From IMG/VR virus record IMGVR_UViG_3300042359_000621: a stretch of 64,000 nt of DNA. One strand, given 5' to 3'. This document shows positions 19,647 through 61,928 of the stretch, one piece after another. The translations under genes were made by a program, and so were the position numbers. Under the pieces are notes generated by a model. The model did no database searches. It was not told the origin of the DNA and saw only the letters and a program-made list of their open reading frames with translations. The DNA is from a virus. The number at the start of each line of letters is the position of its first letter. The first letter of the stretch is position 1.

Positions 19647-20817
19647 CTCGCAATAGGTGATTATCTGGTTTAAGGATTGAAACCTCCCTCCTGGGGTGTG
19701 TAGGATTGGTATTAATCCGACTCGCAATAGGTGATTATCTGGTTTAAGGATTGAAACTTATTGAATCCTGTGCGATCGCCACACTTTCGGGCTTTGATCT
19801 CGCAATAGGTGATTATCTGGTTTAAGGATTGAAACAGAAGATAATTTGAGTCCCCCCTTTACTTTTGAATTGATCTCGCAATAGGTGATTATCTGGTTTA
19901 AGGATTGAAACACAACGGCTCCCATATTGAGTTTCAAATACTTTTCCCTCGCAATAGGTGATTATCTGGTTTAAGGATTGAAACGCGACTGTTCAACACC
20001 GGAATTAAATATAATTCCCGCTCGCAATAGGTGATTATCTGGTTTAAGGATTGAAACTTTCCCATAACTTATCCGGCGGTTGCTGTTTAGAGAACTCGCA
20101 ATAGGTGATTATCTGGTTTAAGGATTGAAACTCAAAACCCATACACAGAGGGAGTGCCGGGTAAGTCGCTCGCAATAGGTGATTGCCTGTTTTAAGGATT
20201 GAAACAACGGGTGGGAATCCATTTTTATTAATGATTTAATCAAGCTCGCAATAGGTGATTATCTGGTTTAAGGATTGAAACCAGAAAATCAGATTGATTG
20301 TATCATAATTGACCCGTTAGATTTCTCGCAATAGGTGATTGCCTGTTTTAAGAATTGAAACATCCATGTTGAATAGTTGGATTGCTTGACAACAATACTC
20401 GCAATAGGTGATTGCCTGTTTTAAGAATTGAAACTTTAACCCTTCTACAGCATCACTGGATGATATTAAGCCTCGCAATAGGTGATTGCCTGTTTTAAGA
20501 ATTGAAACTATATCAGCGATATGGCCGGGCTTTATGGGTATTGCTTGGAGCACTCGCAATAGGTGATTGCCTGTTTTAAGGATTGAAACATATCGAGATT
20601 AATTCATTTGAAAATACTCCCATTGCTGCTCGCAATAGGTGATTGCCTGTTTTAAGGATTGAAACGATTGAATTTGAGCTACCATGTCATTAAGTCCTTT
20701 AACTATTTCTCGCAATAGGTGATTACCTGTTTTAAGGATTGAAACGATTGGAGTCGGTTGGGAAGCCTTGCAAACGTTACCTCGCAATAGGTGATTGCCT
20801 GTTTTAAGGATTGAAAC
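19647..20817 (+). CRISPR. CRISPR array, 16 x 37-bp repeats and 15 spacers
   Basis: The repeat is CTCGCAATAGGTGATTATCTGGTTTAAGGATTGAAAC in repeats 1-7 and 9. The variant ..GATTGCCTGTTTTAAG(G/A)ATTGAAAC occurs in repeats 8 and 10-16. Spacer lengths are 37, 41, 39, 36, 36, 37, 37, 39, 43, 36, 37, 44, 39, 43 and 35 nt, and all spacers are unique. Confidence 0.95.
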
Positions 20818-23011: not shown

Positions 23012-23347
23012 CTAGATATCCCCATTATCTTCATCTTCTAAACTTTGGATATGGTCAAATACTACGCCCGTTTGATAGATTTGTTCATGGAGTGTGGCAA
23101 TGGCTTTAACCGTCTCTACTGCCATCCTTCCGTGAATATGCGTCCCTGATTTGGTTAACTTGCCACAGGCTTTCATTGGGTCATCGCTCTTGGATGCTTG
23201 ACTATAAGCCTTTGCACTAACAGCAATAGAAGATGATGCGATTACGTCTAACCCACGCAAATAAACCTCCATCCTTTTGATTCCATCCTCAAGATCCTTT
23301 TTATACTTCTCTCTATTTTCCTCAATCATTGATTTAATTGCCTCCAT
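23012..23347 (-). CDS. hypothetical protein; an in-frame upstream extension encodes an HTH
   Basis: The ATG-initiated ORF is 111 aa. The frame stays open to 23530 and encodes LSNREVASQIGVSEGIIRHWKK, with no ATG, GTG or TTG. Confidence 0.45.
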   Translation of the reverse strand: MEAIKSMIEENREKYKKDLEDGIKRMEVYLRGLDVIASSSIAVSAKAYSQASKSDDPMKACGKLTKSGTHIHGRMAVETVKAIATLHEQIYQTGVVFDHIQSLEDEDNGDI

Positions 23348-23530
23348 TTTTTCGTTAATAATCTCTCGTTTCCTTTCTTCCCAAATGGGTTGTTTTTTCC
23401 AGTGTCTTATTATCCCTTCTGAAACTCCAATCTGACTGGCAACCTCTCTGTTGGACAGGGATGGGTTGTCAAGAAATGCCTTAACAGCATCTTTGATCAG
23501 ATGTGCCTTACCTCCCTTTATTTCGCAACC

Positions 23531-24040
23531 TTACGCAATAACAACACTTTAAAGTTAACATAGTTGAAAACATTGCTACAACTTAAAATATGAGTAAACC
23601 TAAAATTACTGAGACTGATATCAGCAAATTGACTCCCGATCCGAATAACGCACGGAAAAGAACACCATTGTCGGCAAGCGTTATTAGGAAATCGTTAGAA
23701 CAGTTTGGGGCAGCTCGAAGTATTGTTGTCGATGAAAATGACGTGATTCGGGCGGGTAATGGAACCTTTGAGGAGGCGGGTCAATTAGGGATTGAGAAGG
23801 TTGTCACCATTGAGGTAGATGGTAATACTATTGTTGCAGTCAAAAGGAGAGGATTGACTGAGGAACAATGGAAAAAGTATGCGATCGCTGATAATACGGC
23901 TTCTGATTTTAGTACATGGGATTATGAAATATTGGAGGAGTTGGCTCAAGAGGTAGATTATTCTGAGTTTTTCCCTGATGATAAATTGAATGAATTGTTA
24001 GAGTCATTGGGTAAAGGTGAAAGTTTTGGCAATACTGAAC
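23531..24040 (+). repeat. direct repeat copy 1 (promoter/5'UTR + ParB-like N-domain coding)
   Basis: The 60-nt upstream region is near-identical to 27429-27490, and the coding similarity continues for about 450 bp. Confidence 0.7.
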
Positions 24041-24153
24041 CCAAGGAAGATGGAAACCCAGAATCACCAGAAGATTTTAAGGAATATGGAGAAGATATCG
24101 AAACCGAACACTGTTGCCCTAAATGTGGTTACAAATGGTCTGGAGGTAAATAA
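23590..24153 (+). CDS. ParB-like nuclease domain protein with a C-terminal zinc ribbon
   Basis: The N-terminal ~150 aa is paralogous to ORF 27488 (LTPDPNNARKRT...IV.DEN..I.AGNG..EEAGQLGI). The C-terminus has HCCPKCGYKWSG. Confidence 0.65.
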   Translation: MSKPKITETDISKLTPDPNNARKRTPLSASVIRKSLEQFGAARSIVVDENDVIRAGNGTFEEAGQLGIEKVVTIEVDGNTIVAVKRRGLTEEQWKKYAIADNTASDFSTWDYEILEELAQEVDYSEFFPDDKLNELLESLGKGESFGNTEPKEDGNPESPEDFKEYGEDIETEHCCPKCGYKWSGGK

Positions 24154-25227
24154 ATGAATACCAAACCCATTTATCGTGTTCCTCTAATGAAAGAGATAGA
24201 AGAAATCCCCTGGAACGGGTTTAATGTTGTTTCTACCTTTAGTGGTACTGGTGGCTCATGTCTTGGCTATCGGATGGCTGGTTATCGGGTGTTGTGGGCT
24301 AATGAATTTATTCCTGCGGCTCAGGATTCTTATAAAGCAAATCACCCGAATTCCATCCTTGATAGGAGAGATATTCGGTTGGTACAGCCAGAAGACATTT
24401 TAAGAGCAACTGGCTTAGGTGTTGGCGAAATTGACATATTCGATGGTTCGCCCCCGTGTGCAGCTTTTTCTAAAGCAGGTAAACGTGATAAAGGATGGGG
24501 TGTCGTAAAGAAATATTCAGATACCACGCAACGGGTTGACGATTTGTTTTTTGAATACACCAGACTAATCCAAGGAACAAAGCCTAAAGTATTTGTTGCT
24601 GAAAATGTAGCAGGTTTAGTTACAGGTGTTGCTAAAGGTTATTTTTTAGAGATACTGAGAACTTTAAAAGCCTGTGGCTACAAAGTTAAGTGTAAAGTTT
24701 TAGATGCTCAGTGGTTAGGTGTTCCACAGGCCAGGCAACGGACTATTTTTATAGGGATTAGAGACGATATTAACTTGGATATCGTCTACCCTATACCATG
24801 CAAAAAACAATACACTGTTAGGGATGCAATATCAAATCTAGGGATTGACAATAGTTTGTTTTATAAACTTCCTAAAGGTAAAATGTTAGATGTTTATATG
24901 AACACAAGAGATGACGAGAAAGGTAGATTTGAAGATGCACATTACAGATTGTACGGCAAGGAGTCTTATTTTAATTTTGCGAGAGCTTGTTGGGATTTAC
25001 CGTCTAGGACTATTCTACAAAGTAGCCAGGGTATATGTCACCCAGAGATACCCAGAACATTTACTATTTCAGAATTAAAGCGTATCTGCGCTTTCCCAGA
25101 TGACTTTATATTATTAGGTTCATTTGCTAAACAATGGGAACGACTGGGGCGTGCTGTTCCCCCTGTTATGATGTCACATATAGCCAAAACAATTCAATTA
25201 GAAATACTAGAAAAATGTGTGGATTAG
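24154..25227 (+). CDS. DNA cytosine-C5 methyltransferase-fold enzyme with an atypical motif X (GRAVPP)
   Basis: Motif I is FSGTGGSCLGY, motif IV is GSPPCAAFS, motif VI is AENVAGL, and motif VIII is QARQRTIFIG. Motif X is LGRAVPPVM, with Arg where the canonical enzyme has Asn. Confidence 0.85.
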   Translation: MNTKPIYRVPLMKEIEEIPWNGFNVVSTFSGTGGSCLGYRMAGYRVLWANEFIPAAQDSYKANHPNSILDRRDIRLVQPEDILRATGLGVGEIDIFDGSPPCAAFSKAGKRDKGWGVVKKYSDTTQRVDDLFFEYTRLIQGTKPKVFVAENVAGLVTGVAKGYFLEILRTLKACGYKVKCKVLDAQWLGVPQARQRTIFIGIRDDINLDIVYPIPCKKQYTVRDAISNLGIDNSLFYKLPKGKMLDVYMNTRDDEKGRFEDAHYRLYGKESYFNFARACWDLPSRTILQSSQGICHPEIPRTFTISELKRICAFPDDFILLGSFAKQWERLGRAVPPVMMSHIAKTIQLEILEKCVD

Positions 25228-26570
25228 CGGGTACATATAAATCCAGTGTAGATGTAGAGTCTATGCTTCTTAAAATAATACATAGGGGGCGAGATGACCA
25301 AGGCATTCACAAGCATGGCGATACTGTTCATGGTCACGTTAGGCTGTCTTTACTTGATTTAAGTTCGGCATCTAAACAGCCTTTTCTCTTGAATAATTCC
25401 ACTCTTTCATTTAATGGTGAGATATGGAATTATAGAGATATAAAAAAGAAGTTACAAGACGATGGTTGTAGATTTAACACAACAGGCGACACCGAAGTAT
25501 TGAGTCAATTTTTAGATATTTATGGTGTTTCGCAGTTAAATCAACTAGAGGGAATGTTTGCTTTTGCGTGGAGTAAGGAGCAGGAACATTGGCTTGTGAG
25601 AGACCGTTTTGGTGAAATACCTTTGTATCTGGCAAAAACGAATAAAGGGTATATCTGGGCATCTGAAAGAAAAGCATTTCCTAGTGGTGTTATACCTGTT
25701 TCCGTTCCTCCGGGCTATGCTTTTAATCTAGTAAAAGGCGAGTGGTTTCAATGGTATAAACTACCAGGAACAACACCACAGCAAAATATATTAGATTGCT
25801 TGAGTAGGGGTGTAGAACAAAGATTAAATGCCGATGCTCCGGTCTGCTGTCTTATATCGGGCGGATTAGATAGCGTCTTAGTTCTGCAAATAGCAAAGTC
25901 TATAAATAAAAACATCGTAGCTTTCACGGCAAAAATGCGTAACGATTCAAATGATTTACTAGCAGCCAGAAGGGTATGCAGTGAGTACGAAATTCAATTA
26001 ATAGAAGTGCCAGTATCTATTGATTTGGATTCCTTAACTAACGCAGCTAAAGTAATAGAAATTAACAGCAAAGCTCAAATAGAGATAGCTTCACTGTGCC
26101 TACCACTGGCACAAAGGATAAGAGCAGAAGGTTTTAAGTCTTGCTTATCTGGTGAAGCTGCCGATGAGCTTTTTGGCGGTTATGGTAACTTCTGTATTCA
26201 GGCATCCAAAAGTACGAATACAGAAGTTATATCTCTTAGAAAAAGTCAATTAGCAAAAATGTCAAGGGGTAATTTTGTTAGGTGCAATAAAGCATTTATG
26301 TATGGTGGCGTTGAGTGTAGATTGCCATTTATGGATGTTAATTTAGTTGAATATGCCATAAACCTAAACCTCTCGCAATCACCAGCAAATAAGAAACTAC
26401 TGAAATCCGCCGCAGCTAAACTACTGCCTAAGTGGGTGATATCCAGAGTTAAGGATACCTTTCAAGGGGGTAGTGGAGTCTCTACCTGGACAGAGGAAAA
26501 TATAGCATCTCCAATAAAATTTTACAACAATGAACTAAAGAAAACTTTTGGATACTTACCCAAGGACTAA
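25215..26570 (+). CDS. asparagine synthetase B-like glutamine amidotransferase / ATP-PPase
   Basis: It starts MCGLAG (Ntn Cys2 of class II GATase). It has the PP-loop CCLISGGLDS. It overlaps the MTase stop by 13 nt. Confidence 0.8.
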   Translation: MCGLAGTYKSSVDVESMLLKIIHRGRDDQGIHKHGDTVHGHVRLSLLDLSSASKQPFLLNNSTLSFNGEIWNYRDIKKKLQDDGCRFNTTGDTEVLSQFLDIYGVSQLNQLEGMFAFAWSKEQEHWLVRDRFGEIPLYLAKTNKGYIWASERKAFPSGVIPVSVPPGYAFNLVKGEWFQWYKLPGTTPQQNILDCLSRGVEQRLNADAPVCCLISGGLDSVLVLQIAKSINKNIVAFTAKMRNDSNDLLAARRVCSEYEIQLIEVPVSIDLDSLTNAAKVIEINSKAQIEIASLCLPLAQRIRAEGFKSCLSGEAADELFGGYGNFCIQASKSTNTEVISLRKSQLAKMSRGNFVRCNKAFMYGGVECRLPFMDVNLVEYAINLNLSQSPANKKLLKSAAAKLLPKWVISRVKDTFQGGSGVSTWTEENIASPIKFYNNELKKTFGYLPKD

Positions 26571-26571
26571 T

Positions 26572-27276
26572 ATGAATAATTATCACGTTCCATCTAAAGA
26601 CAAATGGGAGTTTGACGAATCGGTAACAGATATTTTTGATGATATGTTAGCCCGTTCGATTCCCCAATACGAGGTAATGAGAAAAGCTGTTTCAAGTATT
26701 GCTTGTGAGTTTATGCAGTCTTCTGGTTGTGTAGTCGATATAGGCTGTTCAAGAGGTGAGCAAATAGCTCGTTTAATTCAATCCTATGGCGCGGGTTGTC
26801 ACTATCACGGAATAGAAATTAGTGAGCCGATGATTGGTGCAGCTAAAGACAAGTTCAAAAACCATCATTGTGTCAAATTACATGAATTGGATTTGAGAAA
26901 AGATTGGTTAACCATTGAAAACATATCTGTCACTTTGTCTGTTTTAACCTTGCAATTTATTCCGATTGAATACAGGTTAGGACTACTTAAAAAAATCTAT
27001 GATTCAACTCGAAAAGGCGGGTGTTTTATCTTGGTTGAAAAAGTTATTGGTGGGTCTGCTGATATTGACTCACTATTAACAAATCAATACTACAATTTAA
27101 AACACCAGAATGGTTACTCTGTCTATGAGATAGAAAGAAAGCGTTTAAGTCTTGAGGGTGTTTTAGTTCCTGTAACAGCTAATTGGAATGAAGAAATGCT
27201 AAAACTATCTGGTTTCACTGAAGTTGATTGTTTTTGGCGATGGATGAATTTTGTTGGATGGGTTGCTATCAAATAA
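26572..27276 (+). CDS. cmoA: CmoA-like carboxy-S-adenosylmethionine synthase homolog
   Basis: KWEFDESVTDIFDDMLARSIPQY, VVDIGCSRG, LTLQFIP, GGCFILVEK, NGYSVYEIERKRLSLEGVL and NFVGWVAIK are colinear with my recollection of E. coli CmoA. This is the first ATG, and a TTG alternative exists at 26548. Confidence 0.75.
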   Translation: MNNYHVPSKDKWEFDESVTDIFDDMLARSIPQYEVMRKAVSSIACEFMQSSGCVVDIGCSRGEQIARLIQSYGAGCHYHGIEISEPMIGAAKDKFKNHHCVKLHELDLRKDWLTIENISVTLSVLTLQFIPIEYRLGLLKKIYDSTRKGGCFILVEKVIGGSADIDSLLTNQYYNLKHQNGYSVYEIERKRLSLEGVLVPVTANWNEEMLKLSGFTEVDCFWRWMNFVGWVAIK

Positions 27277-27297
27277 ACCTATAGGAATTGAACCTAA

Positions 27298-27359
27298 ATT
27301 AATCCGGCGGTTGCCGGATTAATTATCAAAAAGCCTAGGGGTTGAATCCTAGGCTTTTT
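27298..27359 (+). terminator. tandem intrinsic terminators ending the modification operon
   Basis: Hairpin attaatccggc-ggtt-gccggattaat lies at 27298-27323. Hairpin aaaaagcctagg-ggttgaat-cctaggcttttt lies at 27328-27359. Confidence 0.6.
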
Positions 27360-27428
27360 GATAGTAATGAGTCTTAATTCTTTCGTATCATTTTAATCAC
27401 AACACCCGCGCTGGCTAGATATGCGGGG

Positions 27429-27938
27429 TTACGCAATAACAACACTTTAAAGTTAACATAGTTGAAAACATTGCTACAACTTAAAATATGAGTAAGCCCA
27501 AAATTACTGAGACTGATATCTCTAAACTAACTCCCGATCCTAACAATGCCCGCAAAAGAACGCCCTTATCAGCAAGCGTTATTAGGAAATCAATTGAACA
27601 ATTCGGGATGACTCGGAGTATTGTCCTTGATGAGAATGGGGTGATTTTAGCGGGTAACGGGGCGTTTGAGGAGGCGGGTCAATTAGGTATTGAAAGGGTG
27701 ATCGTCGTCGAGACAACAGGTAATGAGATAGTGGCGGTGAAACGGACTAATCTTACTGCTGAACAGAAAACTCAATATGCGATCGCTGATAATACGGCAT
27801 CTGATTTCTCGACTTGGGACTTTGATATTTTGAGTGAGTTAACTCAGGAAGTTGATCTATCTGAGTTTTTCCCTGATGATAAATTAAATGAATTATTGGA
27901 ACAGTTGGGTAAAGGTGAAAGTTTTGGAGTTACTGAAC
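27429..27938 (+). repeat. direct repeat copy 2
   Basis: See 23531-24040. Confidence 0.7.
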
Positions 27939-29086
27939 AAGGGGAAGAAAACGAGGAAGAAATTGCTGAACTTCTGGATAAGGTAGATGAGATTGAGTCA
28001 CGGGTTAAGTTGGGTGAAATATGGCAGTTAGGACGACATAAAATATGCGCGGGTGATTCTACTATCGAGAGGAATGTTAGGGCTTTGTTGGGGGATAGCA
28101 AGGCGGTATTAGTCCATGCAGATCCACCTTATGGAATGGGTAAGGAAAAAGATGGAGTTCTGAATGATAATCTCTACCGAGAAAAGTTAGATGATTTTCA
28201 GATGAAATGGATCAGGGCTTGTCGTGGGAATGTAGAAGATAATGGCAGTTTTTATATTTGGGGTAATGCTGAGGATTTGTGGCGGTTATGGTATTCGGGC
28301 GGGTTGAAAGATAGTGAGAGGTTGACTTTTAGGAATGAGATTGTTTGGGATAAAGCAAATGCGTCAGGATTGTATGATGGGAACGGCATAGGATCATCTA
28401 TAGGAAGACAGTTTGCTAACATCTCAGAACGCTGTTTATTTTATATGGTTGGTGAGCAGGGATTTAATAATAATGCTGATAATTATTGGGAAGGATGGGA
28501 ACCAATCAGGCTATACCTTGATAATGAGCGCAAGAAATCAGGGTTAACAACGGCACAATGTAACAAGATTTGTGGCAAACAGAATATGACTCAATCTGCT
28601 TTTACAAAAGGTGGTTTTAGACTGATTTTAGAGGAGGATTATACTGCTTTACGGAGCGCAGCAAAAGGCGAAGCCTTTAAACGGGAATATGACGAACTTA
28701 AAAAGGAATATGACAAACTTAAAAAGGAATATGACAAACTTAAAAAGGAATATTATGCCACCCGTGCCTATTTCAATAATACCCACGAAAACATGACCGA
28801 TGTATGGGAATATCCCAGAGTTCAGGGTGAGGAGCGATGGGGTCACGCCACACCCAAACCCGTTGATATGATTGCCAGAATTTATAAAAGTAGTTCACCC
28901 GATGATGGGATTATTTATTCACCATTTTTAGGGTCTGGGACGGATATTATTGCTGGTGAGAAATCAGGAGGCGATCGCACCGTCGCAGGATTCGAGTTAT
29001 CACCCGCATATTGTGAAATTATCTGTCAAAGATTTTCCAAACTAACAGGAATTGAGCCTAAACTAATCGGAAAATTGCCAGATTAA
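27488..29086 (+). CDS. ParB-like domain fused to an N6-adenine/N4-cytosine DNA methyltransferase
   Basis: It has a ParB-like N-domain, motif IV VHADPPYG, and a late FxGxG block SPFLGSGTD. This is a beta-class motif order. It also has 21-bp x3 tandem repeats encoding EYDKLKK. Confidence 0.85.
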   Translation: MSKPKITETDISKLTPDPNNARKRTPLSASVIRKSIEQFGMTRSIVLDENGVILAGNGAFEEAGQLGIERVIVVETTGNEIVAVKRTNLTAEQKTQYAIADNTASDFSTWDFDILSELTQEVDLSEFFPDDKLNELLEQLGKGESFGVTEQGEENEEEIAELLDKVDEIESRVKLGEIWQLGRHKICAGDSTIERNVRALLGDSKAVLVHADPPYGMGKEKDGVLNDNLYREKLDDFQMKWIRACRGNVEDNGSFYIWGNAEDLWRLWYSGGLKDSERLTFRNEIVWDKANASGLYDGNGIGSSIGRQFANISERCLFYMVGEQGFNNNADNYWEGWEPIRLYLDNERKKSGLTTAQCNKICGKQNMTQSAFTKGGFRLILEEDYTALRSAAKGEAFKREYDELKKEYDKLKKEYDKLKKEYYATRAYFNNTHENMTDVWEYPRVQGEERWGHATPKPVDMIARIYKSSSPDDGIIYSPFLGSGTDIIAGEKSGGDRTVAGFELSPAYCEIICQRFSKLTGIEPKLIGKLPD

Positions 29087-29160
29087 TTAATATTAATTGT
29101 GATATAATGTTAATAGAAGTTGCCCTTCGCGGTACGTCAAATACCCAAGGGCTGTAACAC
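29072..29160 (+). promoter_or_regulatory. repeated promoter + leader hairpin unit, copy A
   Basis: The sequence is TTAATATTAATTGTGATATAAT, with TATAAT at 29103-29108, then the hairpin gccctt..aagggc. Copy B at 29593-29680 is about 85 percent identical. Confidence 0.5.
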
Positions 29161-29177
29161 TGGCATACAATATCACC

Positions 29178-29537
29178 ATGACTAATTTTAACACTGAAAC
29201 TGCGATCGCGCTACTTGACTCTGTAGATGATTTTCCAGTGAGCTTTGATGACGCTTGGAGATGGTTGGGATACGAGAGCAAAAGTGATTGTTCAGAAAAA
29301 ATAAAAAACTATCACATGGTTTCTTCTGTCAAATACGCGGACGGTTATTCAGTTAAGAGATTTAAAAAACCAGAAGATAGTCGCTACAAGCATCATATAT
29401 TTTTAACTGTTGATGCCTTTCGTTTCCTTGGTGGGATGACAAACACATCTCAAGCTAGTCGATGTGAAAGTATTATTTTGAGTGTCATTGATTTGCCAAG
29501 TAGAAGAAAGAAATACTCGCACGATTCAGATAGTTAA
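29178..29537 (+). CDS. Ant-like / phage regulatory protein paralog (short)
   Basis: The N-terminus FPVSFDDAWRWLGYESKSD is shared with ORF 29698, and the later block HHIFLTVDAFRFLGGM with ORF 30270. Confidence 0.5.
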   Translation: MTNFNTETAIALLDSVDDFPVSFDDAWRWLGYESKSDCSEKIKNYHMVSSVKYADGYSVKRFKKPEDSRYKHHIFLTVDAFRFLGGMTNTSQASRCESIILSVIDLPSRRKKYSHDSDS

Positions 29538-60318: not shown

Positions 60319-60897
60319 ATGACCGCAGCAACCAAGAAGATAATTGAAAGAGTCTTAAAAATTGGTGAGTGGGTAGAGATTGACCCTCACAAACACCGCT
60401 CAAACTATTTAATTAAGGGAACAGCTTGGCGGGTTGAGGGATTTAATTCAATAAAACAAACCTGTCAAATAACTAACGAAAAAACAGGGAATTTACATAG
60501 ATCGGAAACCCTAGATTTTGAGGAAGTTTCCGATTCAAGTCCATTCAAAAAAACTGATATTGTCCAACTTAAAAGCGACCATCGATATGTTGGGCGGGTT
60601 GTTAATTGTCGAAGAAATAAAATAACAATTGAATGGGCATGGGGTGGAGTCCGAGAATCCCTAGACTCGGACAAAATAAAGTTATTTGTTCGGATGGTCA
60701 TGGGGGAACAAATATTGTTGGGTGATTATGCTTTTAAAGAAGGCGATCGCGTTCACACCAGTGATAAGAATTTTGGCAATGTGATTCTAACTGTTCGGGA
60801 GTGTTTACCTTCTGGGATGGTGGTTTTAAGTTCATCAAATGATCCTAACTTATTACTCCCCGGCTGTGGCTTAACGATTGTTGAGGAGGATTTCTAA
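60319..60897 (+). CDS. hypothetical protein
   Basis: 1-nt overlap with the next gene. Confidence 0.45.
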   Translation: MTAATKKIIERVLKIGEWVEIDPHKHRSNYLIKGTAWRVEGFNSIKQTCQITNEKTGNLHRSETLDFEEVSDSSPFKKTDIVQLKSDHRYVGRVVNCRRNKITIEWAWGGVRESLDSDKIKLFVRMVMGEQILLGDYAFKEGDRVHTSDKNFGNVILTVRECLPSGMVVLSSSNDPNLLLPGCGLTIVEEDF

Positions 60898-61928
60898 TGT
60901 TAACATTTGCAACATTATTTACAGGCGGTGGCGGTGCAGATTTAGGCCTAGAGTCAGCAGGATTTAAGTCTATCTGGGGAGTTGAGCGAGATCCTAAAAT
61001 TGCTAAAGTTGCCCAAGTAAATCTCCCTAATACTAAAATATTTAATTCTTGCGTCGGTGAAATTCGCACTCATCTCATGGAACGGGTTGATTTGCTTTGG
61101 ATGAGTCCCCCATGTCAGCAATATTCAATGGCGCGGCGTGGTGATATTCCCGATCACAAAGACAAAGATGCGGGGTTGTATTGTCGGGACTATATAGCTA
61201 CATTAAACCCTCGATGGGTGGTTCTTGAGAATGTACCAGGATATGCTAAGTCGCCGACATTTGAGGCGATATTGCGATCGCTGATTGATTGCGGATATCG
61301 CTACCATTGGTTAATTCTTGACGCGGCGGATTATGGGGTTCCGCAGAACCGGAAACGATTAATCATGTGGGCAGTCAAAAACTCAGAACCCCTCCCATAT
61401 TTTCCCGAATCAAAGCCTAGAAAGGGATGGTATCAAGCTATTAGTGATTTAATCCCTGAGATGAGTGATTGTGAGCTTGCAGACTGGCAGATTAAGCGAC
61501 TGAATGAATTGGGTTATTTGCCAGAAAAAGCCTTGATTGATATTAGTAAGAATCGACATAAACCAGCTACGGCCAGAGATGGGAACGATCCGAGTTTTAC
61601 CCTATTAACCGATCATAGTGGCTACCATTCACCCGTTTTATTAGTCCCCCGTGCAGGCGCTTGTATCAAAAATATCCTCCCAACCCCCTCGGACAAACCC
61701 TGCCCAACAATTCGAGCTATGAAGGATGTTTCGACCCATTGGGCGGACATTGTAGAGGGAAGTCAAATTAAACGAATTAGTCAAAAAGCGACGGCACGGC
61801 TTCAGACTTTCCCCGACTCCTGTCAATTCCCAGAATCCAAATCTTTAAGCCAACAAATAATAGGAAACGCCGTGCCTCCGTTATTGGCTAAAGAATTAGG
61901 TTTAGCAATCTTAAAATCAATTAACTAA
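60897..61928 (+). CDS. dcm: canonical DNA cytosine-C5 methyltransferase
   Basis: Motif I is FTGGGGADLG, motif IV is SPPCQQYS, motif VI is LENVPGY, motif VIII is PQNRKRLIM, and motif X is IGNAVPPLL. Confidence 0.9.
   Translation: MLTFATLFTGGGGADLGLESAGFKSIWGVERDPKIAKVAQVNLPNTKIFNSCVGEIRTHLMERVDLLWMSPPCQQYSMARRGDIPDHKDKDAGLYCRDYIATLNPRWVVLENVPGYAKSPTFEAILRSLIDCGYRYHWLILDAADYGVPQNRKRLIMWAVKNSEPLPYFPESKPRKGWYQAISDLIPEMSDCELADWQIKRLNELGYLPEKALIDISKNRHKPATARDGNDPSFTLLTDHSGYHSPVLLVPRAGACIKNILPTPSDKPCPTIRAMKDVSTHWADIVEGSQIKRISQKATARLQTFPDSCQFPESKSLSQQIIGNAVPPLLAKELGLAILKSIN

Follow-up and report, generated by a model that had tools for sequence, protein, structure and literature searches.

We assign the open reading frame (ORF) at 24154..25227 of the viral record IMGVR_UViG_3300042359_000621, a stretch of 64,000 nucleotides (nt) that we analyzed whole and call the window, to the CmoX-type DNA cytosine C5-carboxymethyltransferases, with a probability that we put at roughly 0.88. 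The predicted gene lies in a row of parB-like, cmoX, cmoY and cmoA genes in a relative of the Planktothrix phage PaV-LD. Homology, conserved contacts to the cofactor carboxy-S-adenosylmethionine (Cx-SAM), gene linkage and covariation of two pocket residues together point to this reading. The mechanism had been proposed for this gene from the bare DNA (the sequence-only reading, below); it is correct but was already published in December 2025 and is established for a homologue, so it is not new, and the locus is a further CmoX/CmoA/CmoY member.

The characterized homologue is SpCmoX, the DNA cytosine C5-carboxymethyltransferase of Synechococcus phage S-B43, whose structure with Cx-SAM was solved at 1.9 Å (PDB 8YF3; Yang et al., Nat Commun 2025, PMC12783734). 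In that phage, CmoA converts S-adenosylmethionine (SAM) and prephenate to Cx-SAM, SpCmoX moves the carboxymethyl group onto cytosine C5 in GC motifs, and glycine is joined to the resulting 5-carboxymethylcytosine (5cxmC) by SpCmoY, which is homologous to asparagine synthetase; protection from HhaI digestion was demonstrated for these homologues (PMC12783734). Wild-type SpCmoX accepts Cx-SAM only and not SAM, and its Arg350, which replaces Asn304 of HhaI, contacts the carboxymethyl/carboxylate group of Cx-SAM (PMC12783734). Using the SPPC motif plus the Arg as signature, the same authors retrieved 5,615 candidate CmoX sequences, often near CmoA, a ligase and a ParB-domain protein (PMC12783734). 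Two further studies bear on the pocket. The M.MpeI mutant N374K gains the use of Cx-SAM, for which a Lys-carboxylate salt bridge was proposed (PMC12015181), and which the Arg of SpCmoX "strikingly mirrors" according to Yang et al. (PMC12783734). In HhaI, Gln82 and Asn304 were placed by modeling on either side of the transferable group, and the Q82A exchange lowers methylation ~16-fold (PMC3526304). The sequence-only reading had reasoned that a positive residue in place of the conserved motif X Asn would accommodate the carboxylate of Cx-SAM, which is what the 8YF3 structure shows for Arg350 of the homologue, and the engineered Asn-to-Lys enzyme that it mentioned is M.MpeI N374K.

The protein encoded by ORF 24154..25227 (window CmoX) has 8yf3_A as its top sequence match in the PDB (E 6e-68, compared with 2.5e-29 for M.HaeIII), and the HMMER alignment sets GRMVPP of 8yf3_A opposite GRAVPP of the window protein. 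The same structure was the top fold match of its AlphaFold model (predicted local distance difference test score 88.6), with E 4e-33 and template modeling scores of 0.75/0.81. All of the named Cx-SAM contacts are conserved, with F25, E47, F48, D69, C98 and R350 of SpCmoX corresponding to F29, E51, F52, D73, C102 and R333 of window CmoX. The cytosine-binding residues are likewise kept (Glu150 of the ENV motif, Arg194 and Arg196 of the RxR motif), and S99-P100-P101-C102 aligns with S95-C98 of SpCmoX, the SPPC motif on which Yang et al. filtered. A cmoA gene lies two genes downstream.

The residues that set this enzyme apart had been pointed out from the sequence alone, by comparison with a second C5-methyltransferase in the window, and we read the same codons. 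The motif X segment at 25147-25164 (ggg cgt gct gtt ccc cct) translates as G-R-A-V-P-P, within LGRAVPP, with Arg333 encoded by cgt at 25150-25152, whereas the second enzyme (60897..61928) has IGNAVPP, with Asn324 encoded by aac at 61866-61868. Motif IV differs as had been described, with SPPCAAFS in the first enzyme and SPPCQQYS (61104-61127) in the second. The canonical pair, a Gln following the catalytic Cys plus the motif X Asn, is thus found in the second enzyme and not in window CmoX, which carries Ala103 and Arg333. Whether the Arg really sits at the cofactor-proximal Asn position had been left to alignment, and both the MAFFT and the HMMER alignments place it in that column. Arg333, Arg350 of SpCmoX, Asn304 of M.HhaI and Asn324 of the second methyltransferase share one MAFFT column, and Ala103 shares another with Gln82 of HhaI (the M.HhaI sequence used matches PDB 10mh_A residue for residue over 1-327). 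In HMMER pairwise alignments, Arg333 stands opposite the Asn of GNAVP in both M.HaeIII and DNMT1. Of the 120 database homologues nearest to window CmoX, 118 carry the Arg, consistent with the earlier view that the substitution is not chance, and an alignment of 57 sequences shows at least 90% conservation of this residue; the remaining two homologues have Asn in motif X, with Gln or Glu, not Ala or Ser, after the catalytic Cys.

The two pocket positions covary. Among 150 representatives of 50%-identity clusters, 60 combined Ala, Ser, Cys or Thr after the catalytic Cys with Arg in motif X, 51 combined Gln, Thr, Val or Glu with Asn, and none of the 150 combined Gln with Arg or Ala/Ser with Asn. 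The Arg also tracks cmoA, which was scored with a hidden Markov model (HMM) built from hits; the lowest hit among the ORFs of the viral contigs scored 46 bits, with none weaker even at E<=10. A cmoA gene was found within 5 kb in all 79 viral contigs carrying close relatives of window CmoX and in 66 of 86 loci resembling that of SpCmoX, the latter count being 16/16 for loci where each side has 3 kb or more of flanking DNA. For relatives of the second, Asn-type methyltransferase it was found within 5 kb in 0/40, and it was found in none of the four Asn-type relatives closest to the Arg type (L208, L210, L211 and L214). Cultured phages show the same division: cmoA is adjacent in all five with an Arg-type enzyme (S-B43, S-CRM01, PaBG, Mcat8 and TurkishDelight) and was found in neither of the two without one, CL131 (Gln plus Asn) and BMBtp14 (Ser plus Met). 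It had been said that the proposal would be refuted if GRAVPP variants were common without a linked cmoA; they are not, the Arg type being cmoA-linked wherever the flank sufficed and the Asn-type relatives not. An apparent group of "Arg-type without cmoA" loci was dropped, since tblastn with the window CmoA had missed cmoA in about a third of the related loci and the HMM found it in all 79.

Other pocket pairs exist among the homologues. Some 30 proteins (P0175, P0193, P0215, P0225, P0229 and P0316-P0340; loci L212 and L222-L225) form a coherent sister clade of CmoX with Glu after the Cys (GSPPCEPFS) and Asp in motif X (LGD[ACS]VPP), and so have two acidic residues where CmoX carries Ala/Ser and Arg. 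An alignment scan and contig look-ups yielded five loci of this clade, and neither cmoA nor a ligase nor another cofactor enzyme was found near the gene; an upstream ParB-like gene is common to all five, and a protein of about 200 amino acids (aa) and no known family occurs in three. Further pairs are Asp+Leu/Met, Asn+Met, Asp+Gln and Ala+Gln (P0132, P0206, P0228, P0257, P0263, P0258 and P0262). Scans of viral contigs with the single proteins P0175 and P0132, which represent odd pocket classes, gave no matches. Bacillus phage BMBtp14 (L221 7977-9017) has its Ser+Met pocket with no cmoA nearby, and Pseudomonas phage PaBG (L218 7995-9002) has a Lys+Arg pocket together with an adjacent cmoA and a ligase like SpCmoY. 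As a weaker possibility, the sister clades with Glu+Asp or Asp+Leu/Met pockets may transfer a group other than methyl or carboxymethyl. In P0054 and P0058 the motif IX-X segment (FPDD...W-E-R-L-G-R/N-x-VPP) occurs a second time, at the N-terminus and the C-terminus, respectively, which resembles the outcome of a partial duplication or an intermediate in circular permutation.

In the proposed pathway, the product of the window's cmoA would convert SAM and prephenate to Cx-SAM. CmoX would flip out the target cytosine and attack its C6 with Cys102, as ordinary C5-methyltransferases do, and then move the carboxymethyl group from Cx-SAM onto C5, yielding 5cxmC. Arg333, in the usual place of Asn, would pair with the extra carboxylate of Cx-SAM, and Ala103, in the usual place of Gln, would give that carboxylate room. 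CmoY would then adenylate the carboxylate of 5cxmC and, because its glutaminase domain is intact, most likely amidate it with glutamine-derived ammonia to 5-carbamoylmethylcytosine, a base for which the literature searched contained no report in DNA. DNA modified in this manner would be expected to resist host restriction.

The last of these steps draws on the domain structure of the window's CmoY. The protein begins with an N-terminal nucleophile (Ntn, class II) glutaminase domain with a Met-Cys2-Gly start (Pfam GATase_6/7, E 1e-29), followed by an asparagine-synthetase PP-loop domain (PF00733, E 8e-39) with SGGLDS at residue 215. On TIGR01536, the model for glutamine-hydrolyzing asparagine synthase, it scores 261.6 bits, with the cut-off at 267.1. 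Aligned to E. coli AsnB (1CT9), it keeps HVRLS (41), NGEIWN (67) and GDTEV (91), whose Arg, Asn-Gly-Glu and Asp we take to be the residues that bind glutamine in AsnB. The window's CmoY shares 31% identity, at 99% coverage, with gp124 of Streptomyces phage TurkishDelight, which an exact-sequence look-up identified as UniRef A0A7T0Q3R0. This entry represents the "second largest" cluster of CmoY proteins, for which Yang et al. predicted the use of glutamine-derived ammonia (PMC12783734).

We also considered that CmoX and CmoA act as proposed while CmoY does not use ammonia, so that the final base would be an amide of glycine or another amino acid, as in S-B43, or 5cxmC itself. The sole characterized CmoY does ligate glycine, and in some related contigs, for example L008 (6324-8755) and L014 (1747-4069), ParB, cmoX and cmoA follow one another with no cmoY between or nearby, so that the modification may end at 5cxmC there. 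However, SpCmoY lacks a glutaminase domain and did not match the synthetase domain of the window protein at E<=1e-3, the window's CmoY has a complete Ntn glutaminase domain that includes Cys2 and the conserved motifs named above, it scores 261.6 bits on TIGR01536, and ammonia was predicted for the glutaminase-type class by Yang et al. themselves. We therefore regard a non-ammonia product in this phage as unlikely. Far less probable still is that ORF 24154..25227 encodes an ordinary SAM-dependent methyltransferase making 5-methylcytosine, in which the Arg is simply tolerated and cmoA serves to deplete host SAM or to modify tRNA. The protein matches the generic dcm model TIGR00675, an exact-sequence look-up returned public records that label it "DNA (cytosine-5)-methyltransferase 1", and depletion of SAM by CmoA was raised by Yang et al. 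as a possible side effect (PMC12783734). Nevertheless, SpCmoX does not use SAM at all, a canonical C5-methyltransferase is already present in the same phage, and a scan of neighboring ORFs found no CmoB-like protein that would partner CmoA in the tRNA pathway. We rejected the ordinary methyltransferase on the grounds of the selectivity of SpCmoX, the covariation of the Arg with a small motif IV residue, and the tracking of cmoA.

Several points weigh against the carboxymethyltransferase assignment or the pathway built on it. The R350N mutant of SpCmoX was dead with both cofactors and was not converted to a methyltransferase (PMC12783734), so that the Arg is necessary but is no simple switch and not the sole determinant. 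Window CmoX is only 41% identical to SpCmoX, falling to about 20% in the target-recognition region (206-300). The window's CmoA scores 159.4 bits on TIGR00740, below the curated NCBIfam cut-off of 193.3 but above the validated SpCmoA (115.6); CmoA is nonetheless by far the best family for this ORF, with end-to-end matches to the CmoA structures 1im8 (E 1e-30) and 4gek (E 6e-29) over residues 18-242 and the next non-CmoA match at E 6e-11. Yang et al. obtained no soluble enzyme from the glutaminase-type CmoY cluster (PMC12783734), so that the product of this type is a prediction. The surveyed loci are kin of three query proteins, and the linkage counts are thus descriptive, with a Fisher p of 7e-28 that overstates the evidence. 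Finally, the window proteins themselves are known from their genes alone, and we infer their activity, the target sequence of CmoX and the amine used by CmoY.

Table 1. Features of the predicted CmoX locus and of the second C5-methyltransferase in the window
Feature	Coordinates	Strand	Description
Direct repeat, left copy	23531..24040	.	~510 bp, ParB N-domain coding DNA, 79% identical to right copy
ParB-like protein	23590..24153	+	187 aa, C-terminal CPKCG zinc-ribbon-like motif; first gene of the row; stop abuts cmoX ATG
cmoX	24154..25227	+	Predicted DNA cytosine C5-carboxymethyltransferase; 357 aa, PF00145 E 1e-55
Motif IV SPPCAAFS	24448..24471	+	Catalytic Cys102; Ala103 replaces the usual Gln (HhaI Gln82)
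Motif X GRAVPP	25147..25164	+	Arg333 at the HhaI Asn304 and SpCmoX Arg350 position
cmoY	25215..26570	+	Glutamine-hydrolyzing type; 451 aa; start overlaps cmoX stop by 13 nt
cmoA	26572..27276	+	Predicted carboxy-SAM synthase; 234 aa from ATG one base after cmoY stop
Direct repeat, right copy	27429..27938	.	ParB N-domain coding DNA
ParB-domain / N6-N4 DNA methyltransferase fusion	27488..29086	+	532 aa, PF01555 E 1e-28; directly downstream of the cassette
Second, canonical C5-methyltransferase	60897..61928	+	343 aa, PF00145 E 1e-50; within-genome contrast

The row opens with a small ParB-like protein (Table 1), which had no Pfam match of its own at E<=0.01. Its homologues upstream of related methyltransferases match PF02195 (ParB_N), and such a homologue lies upstream of the methyltransferase in 71 of 79 related loci. 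The fusion protein that follows the cassette is a third DNA methyltransferase in the window and has a KKEYDKL coiled repeat. A scan of 23300-29300 for promoters and terminators found nothing above the shuffled expectation. The exact window proteins occur in public metagenome assemblies, under generic names.

The phage is closely related to PaV-LD (NC_016564): the structural genes share about 96% nt identity, and the replication region, which includes the canonical C5-methyltransferase ("site-specific DNA methylase"), about 90%. PaV-LD differs in having no cmoX-cmoY-cmoA cassette and a single ParB-like gene at that site, ORF098R, a protein of 374 aa annotated only as a ParB-like partition protein; by blastn its counterpart in the window is the longer fusion gene at 27488..29086. 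Two direct repeats of about 510 bp bracket the cassette (Table 1), and PaV-LD has a single copy, at 70733-71251. The bracketing repeats and the single copy in a relative without the cassette suggest that the phage acquired the ParB-cmoX-cmoY-cmoA module by way of recombination at the ParB sequence common to both. Elsewhere, at 19647-20817, overlapping blastn matches recur about every 75 bp along some 1.2 kb, which suggests a tandem array, of which PaV-LD has only one or two units (69065-69177).

Within the module, the three proteins diverge unequally. Compared with related metagenomic contigs, CmoY is 94-95% and CmoA about 79-85% identical, whereas CmoX is only 68-70% identical. The difference is concentrated in CmoX residues 206-300 (24769-25053), which are 19-27% identical to those of three such contigs (L005, L007 and L009), against 81-89% for the catalytic parts, and at least three types of recognition domain occur, represented by the window, by L005 and L007, and by L009. 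A divergent recognition region in an otherwise similar CmoX points to domain swapping, probably with different target sequences. We give even odds to the proposal that the glutaminase-type CmoY of this PaV-LD-like phage makes 5-carbamoylmethylcytosine, and that near-identical phages may retarget the modification by exchanging the CmoX recognition domain.

That motif reasoning on the raw sequence rediscovered the defining signature of CmoX shows that it was sound, while adding little that is new. The signature amounts to a two-residue rule for annotation, in which a small residue after the catalytic Cys together with Arg in motif X marks a carboxymethyltransferase and not a methyltransferase; public records currently call all such proteins ordinary "DNA (cytosine-5)-methyltransferase". 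The presence of the cassette here and its absence from the close relative PaV-LD make a natural pair for studying the benefit of the modification to a phage of freshwater bloom-forming cyanobacteria. The compact glutaminase-type CmoY is of interest for its predicted product, 5-carbamoylmethylcytosine.

Known systems resemble the window locus to different degrees. The engineered M.MpeI N374K and M.MedI N377K, like window CmoX, place a positive side chain at the motif X Asn for the carboxylate of Cx-SAM, but it is Lys and not Arg, and these CpG methyltransferases, mutated in the laboratory, have kept the use of SAM (positional equivalence as published). The "steric" M.HhaI variants Q82A/N304A are altered at the same two pocket positions, the residue after the motif IV Cys and the motif X Asn; there, both become Ala, making room for synthetic extended SAM analogues, whereas the window type combines Ala or Ser with Arg for a natural cofactor. 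Actinophage TurkishDelight, itself known from genes alone at this locus, is unlike the cyanophage of the window in type but has the same gene order in gp122-gp125 (ParB-like, CmoX, glutaminase-type CmoY, CmoA), and its CmoX has an Ala plus Arg pocket and is 49% identical to that of the window. With SpCmoX, SpCmoA and SpCmoY the window shares the C5-methyltransferase fold, the SPPC motif, the motif X Arg, the Cx-SAM contacts, and an adjacent cmoA and asparagine-synthetase-like ligase. It differs from S-B43 in gene order (cmoX-cmoY-cmoA here, cmoA-cmoY-cmoX there), in the target-recognition region of CmoX, which is unlike that of SpCmoX within the low overall identity given above, and in phage type (PaV-LD-like and T4-like cyanophages, respectively). 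An upstream ParB-like gene is present in the window and in 0/86 loci of the S-B43 group, and the CmoY of the window has 451 aa with a glutaminase domain, compared with 271 aa and no such domain in SpCmoY.

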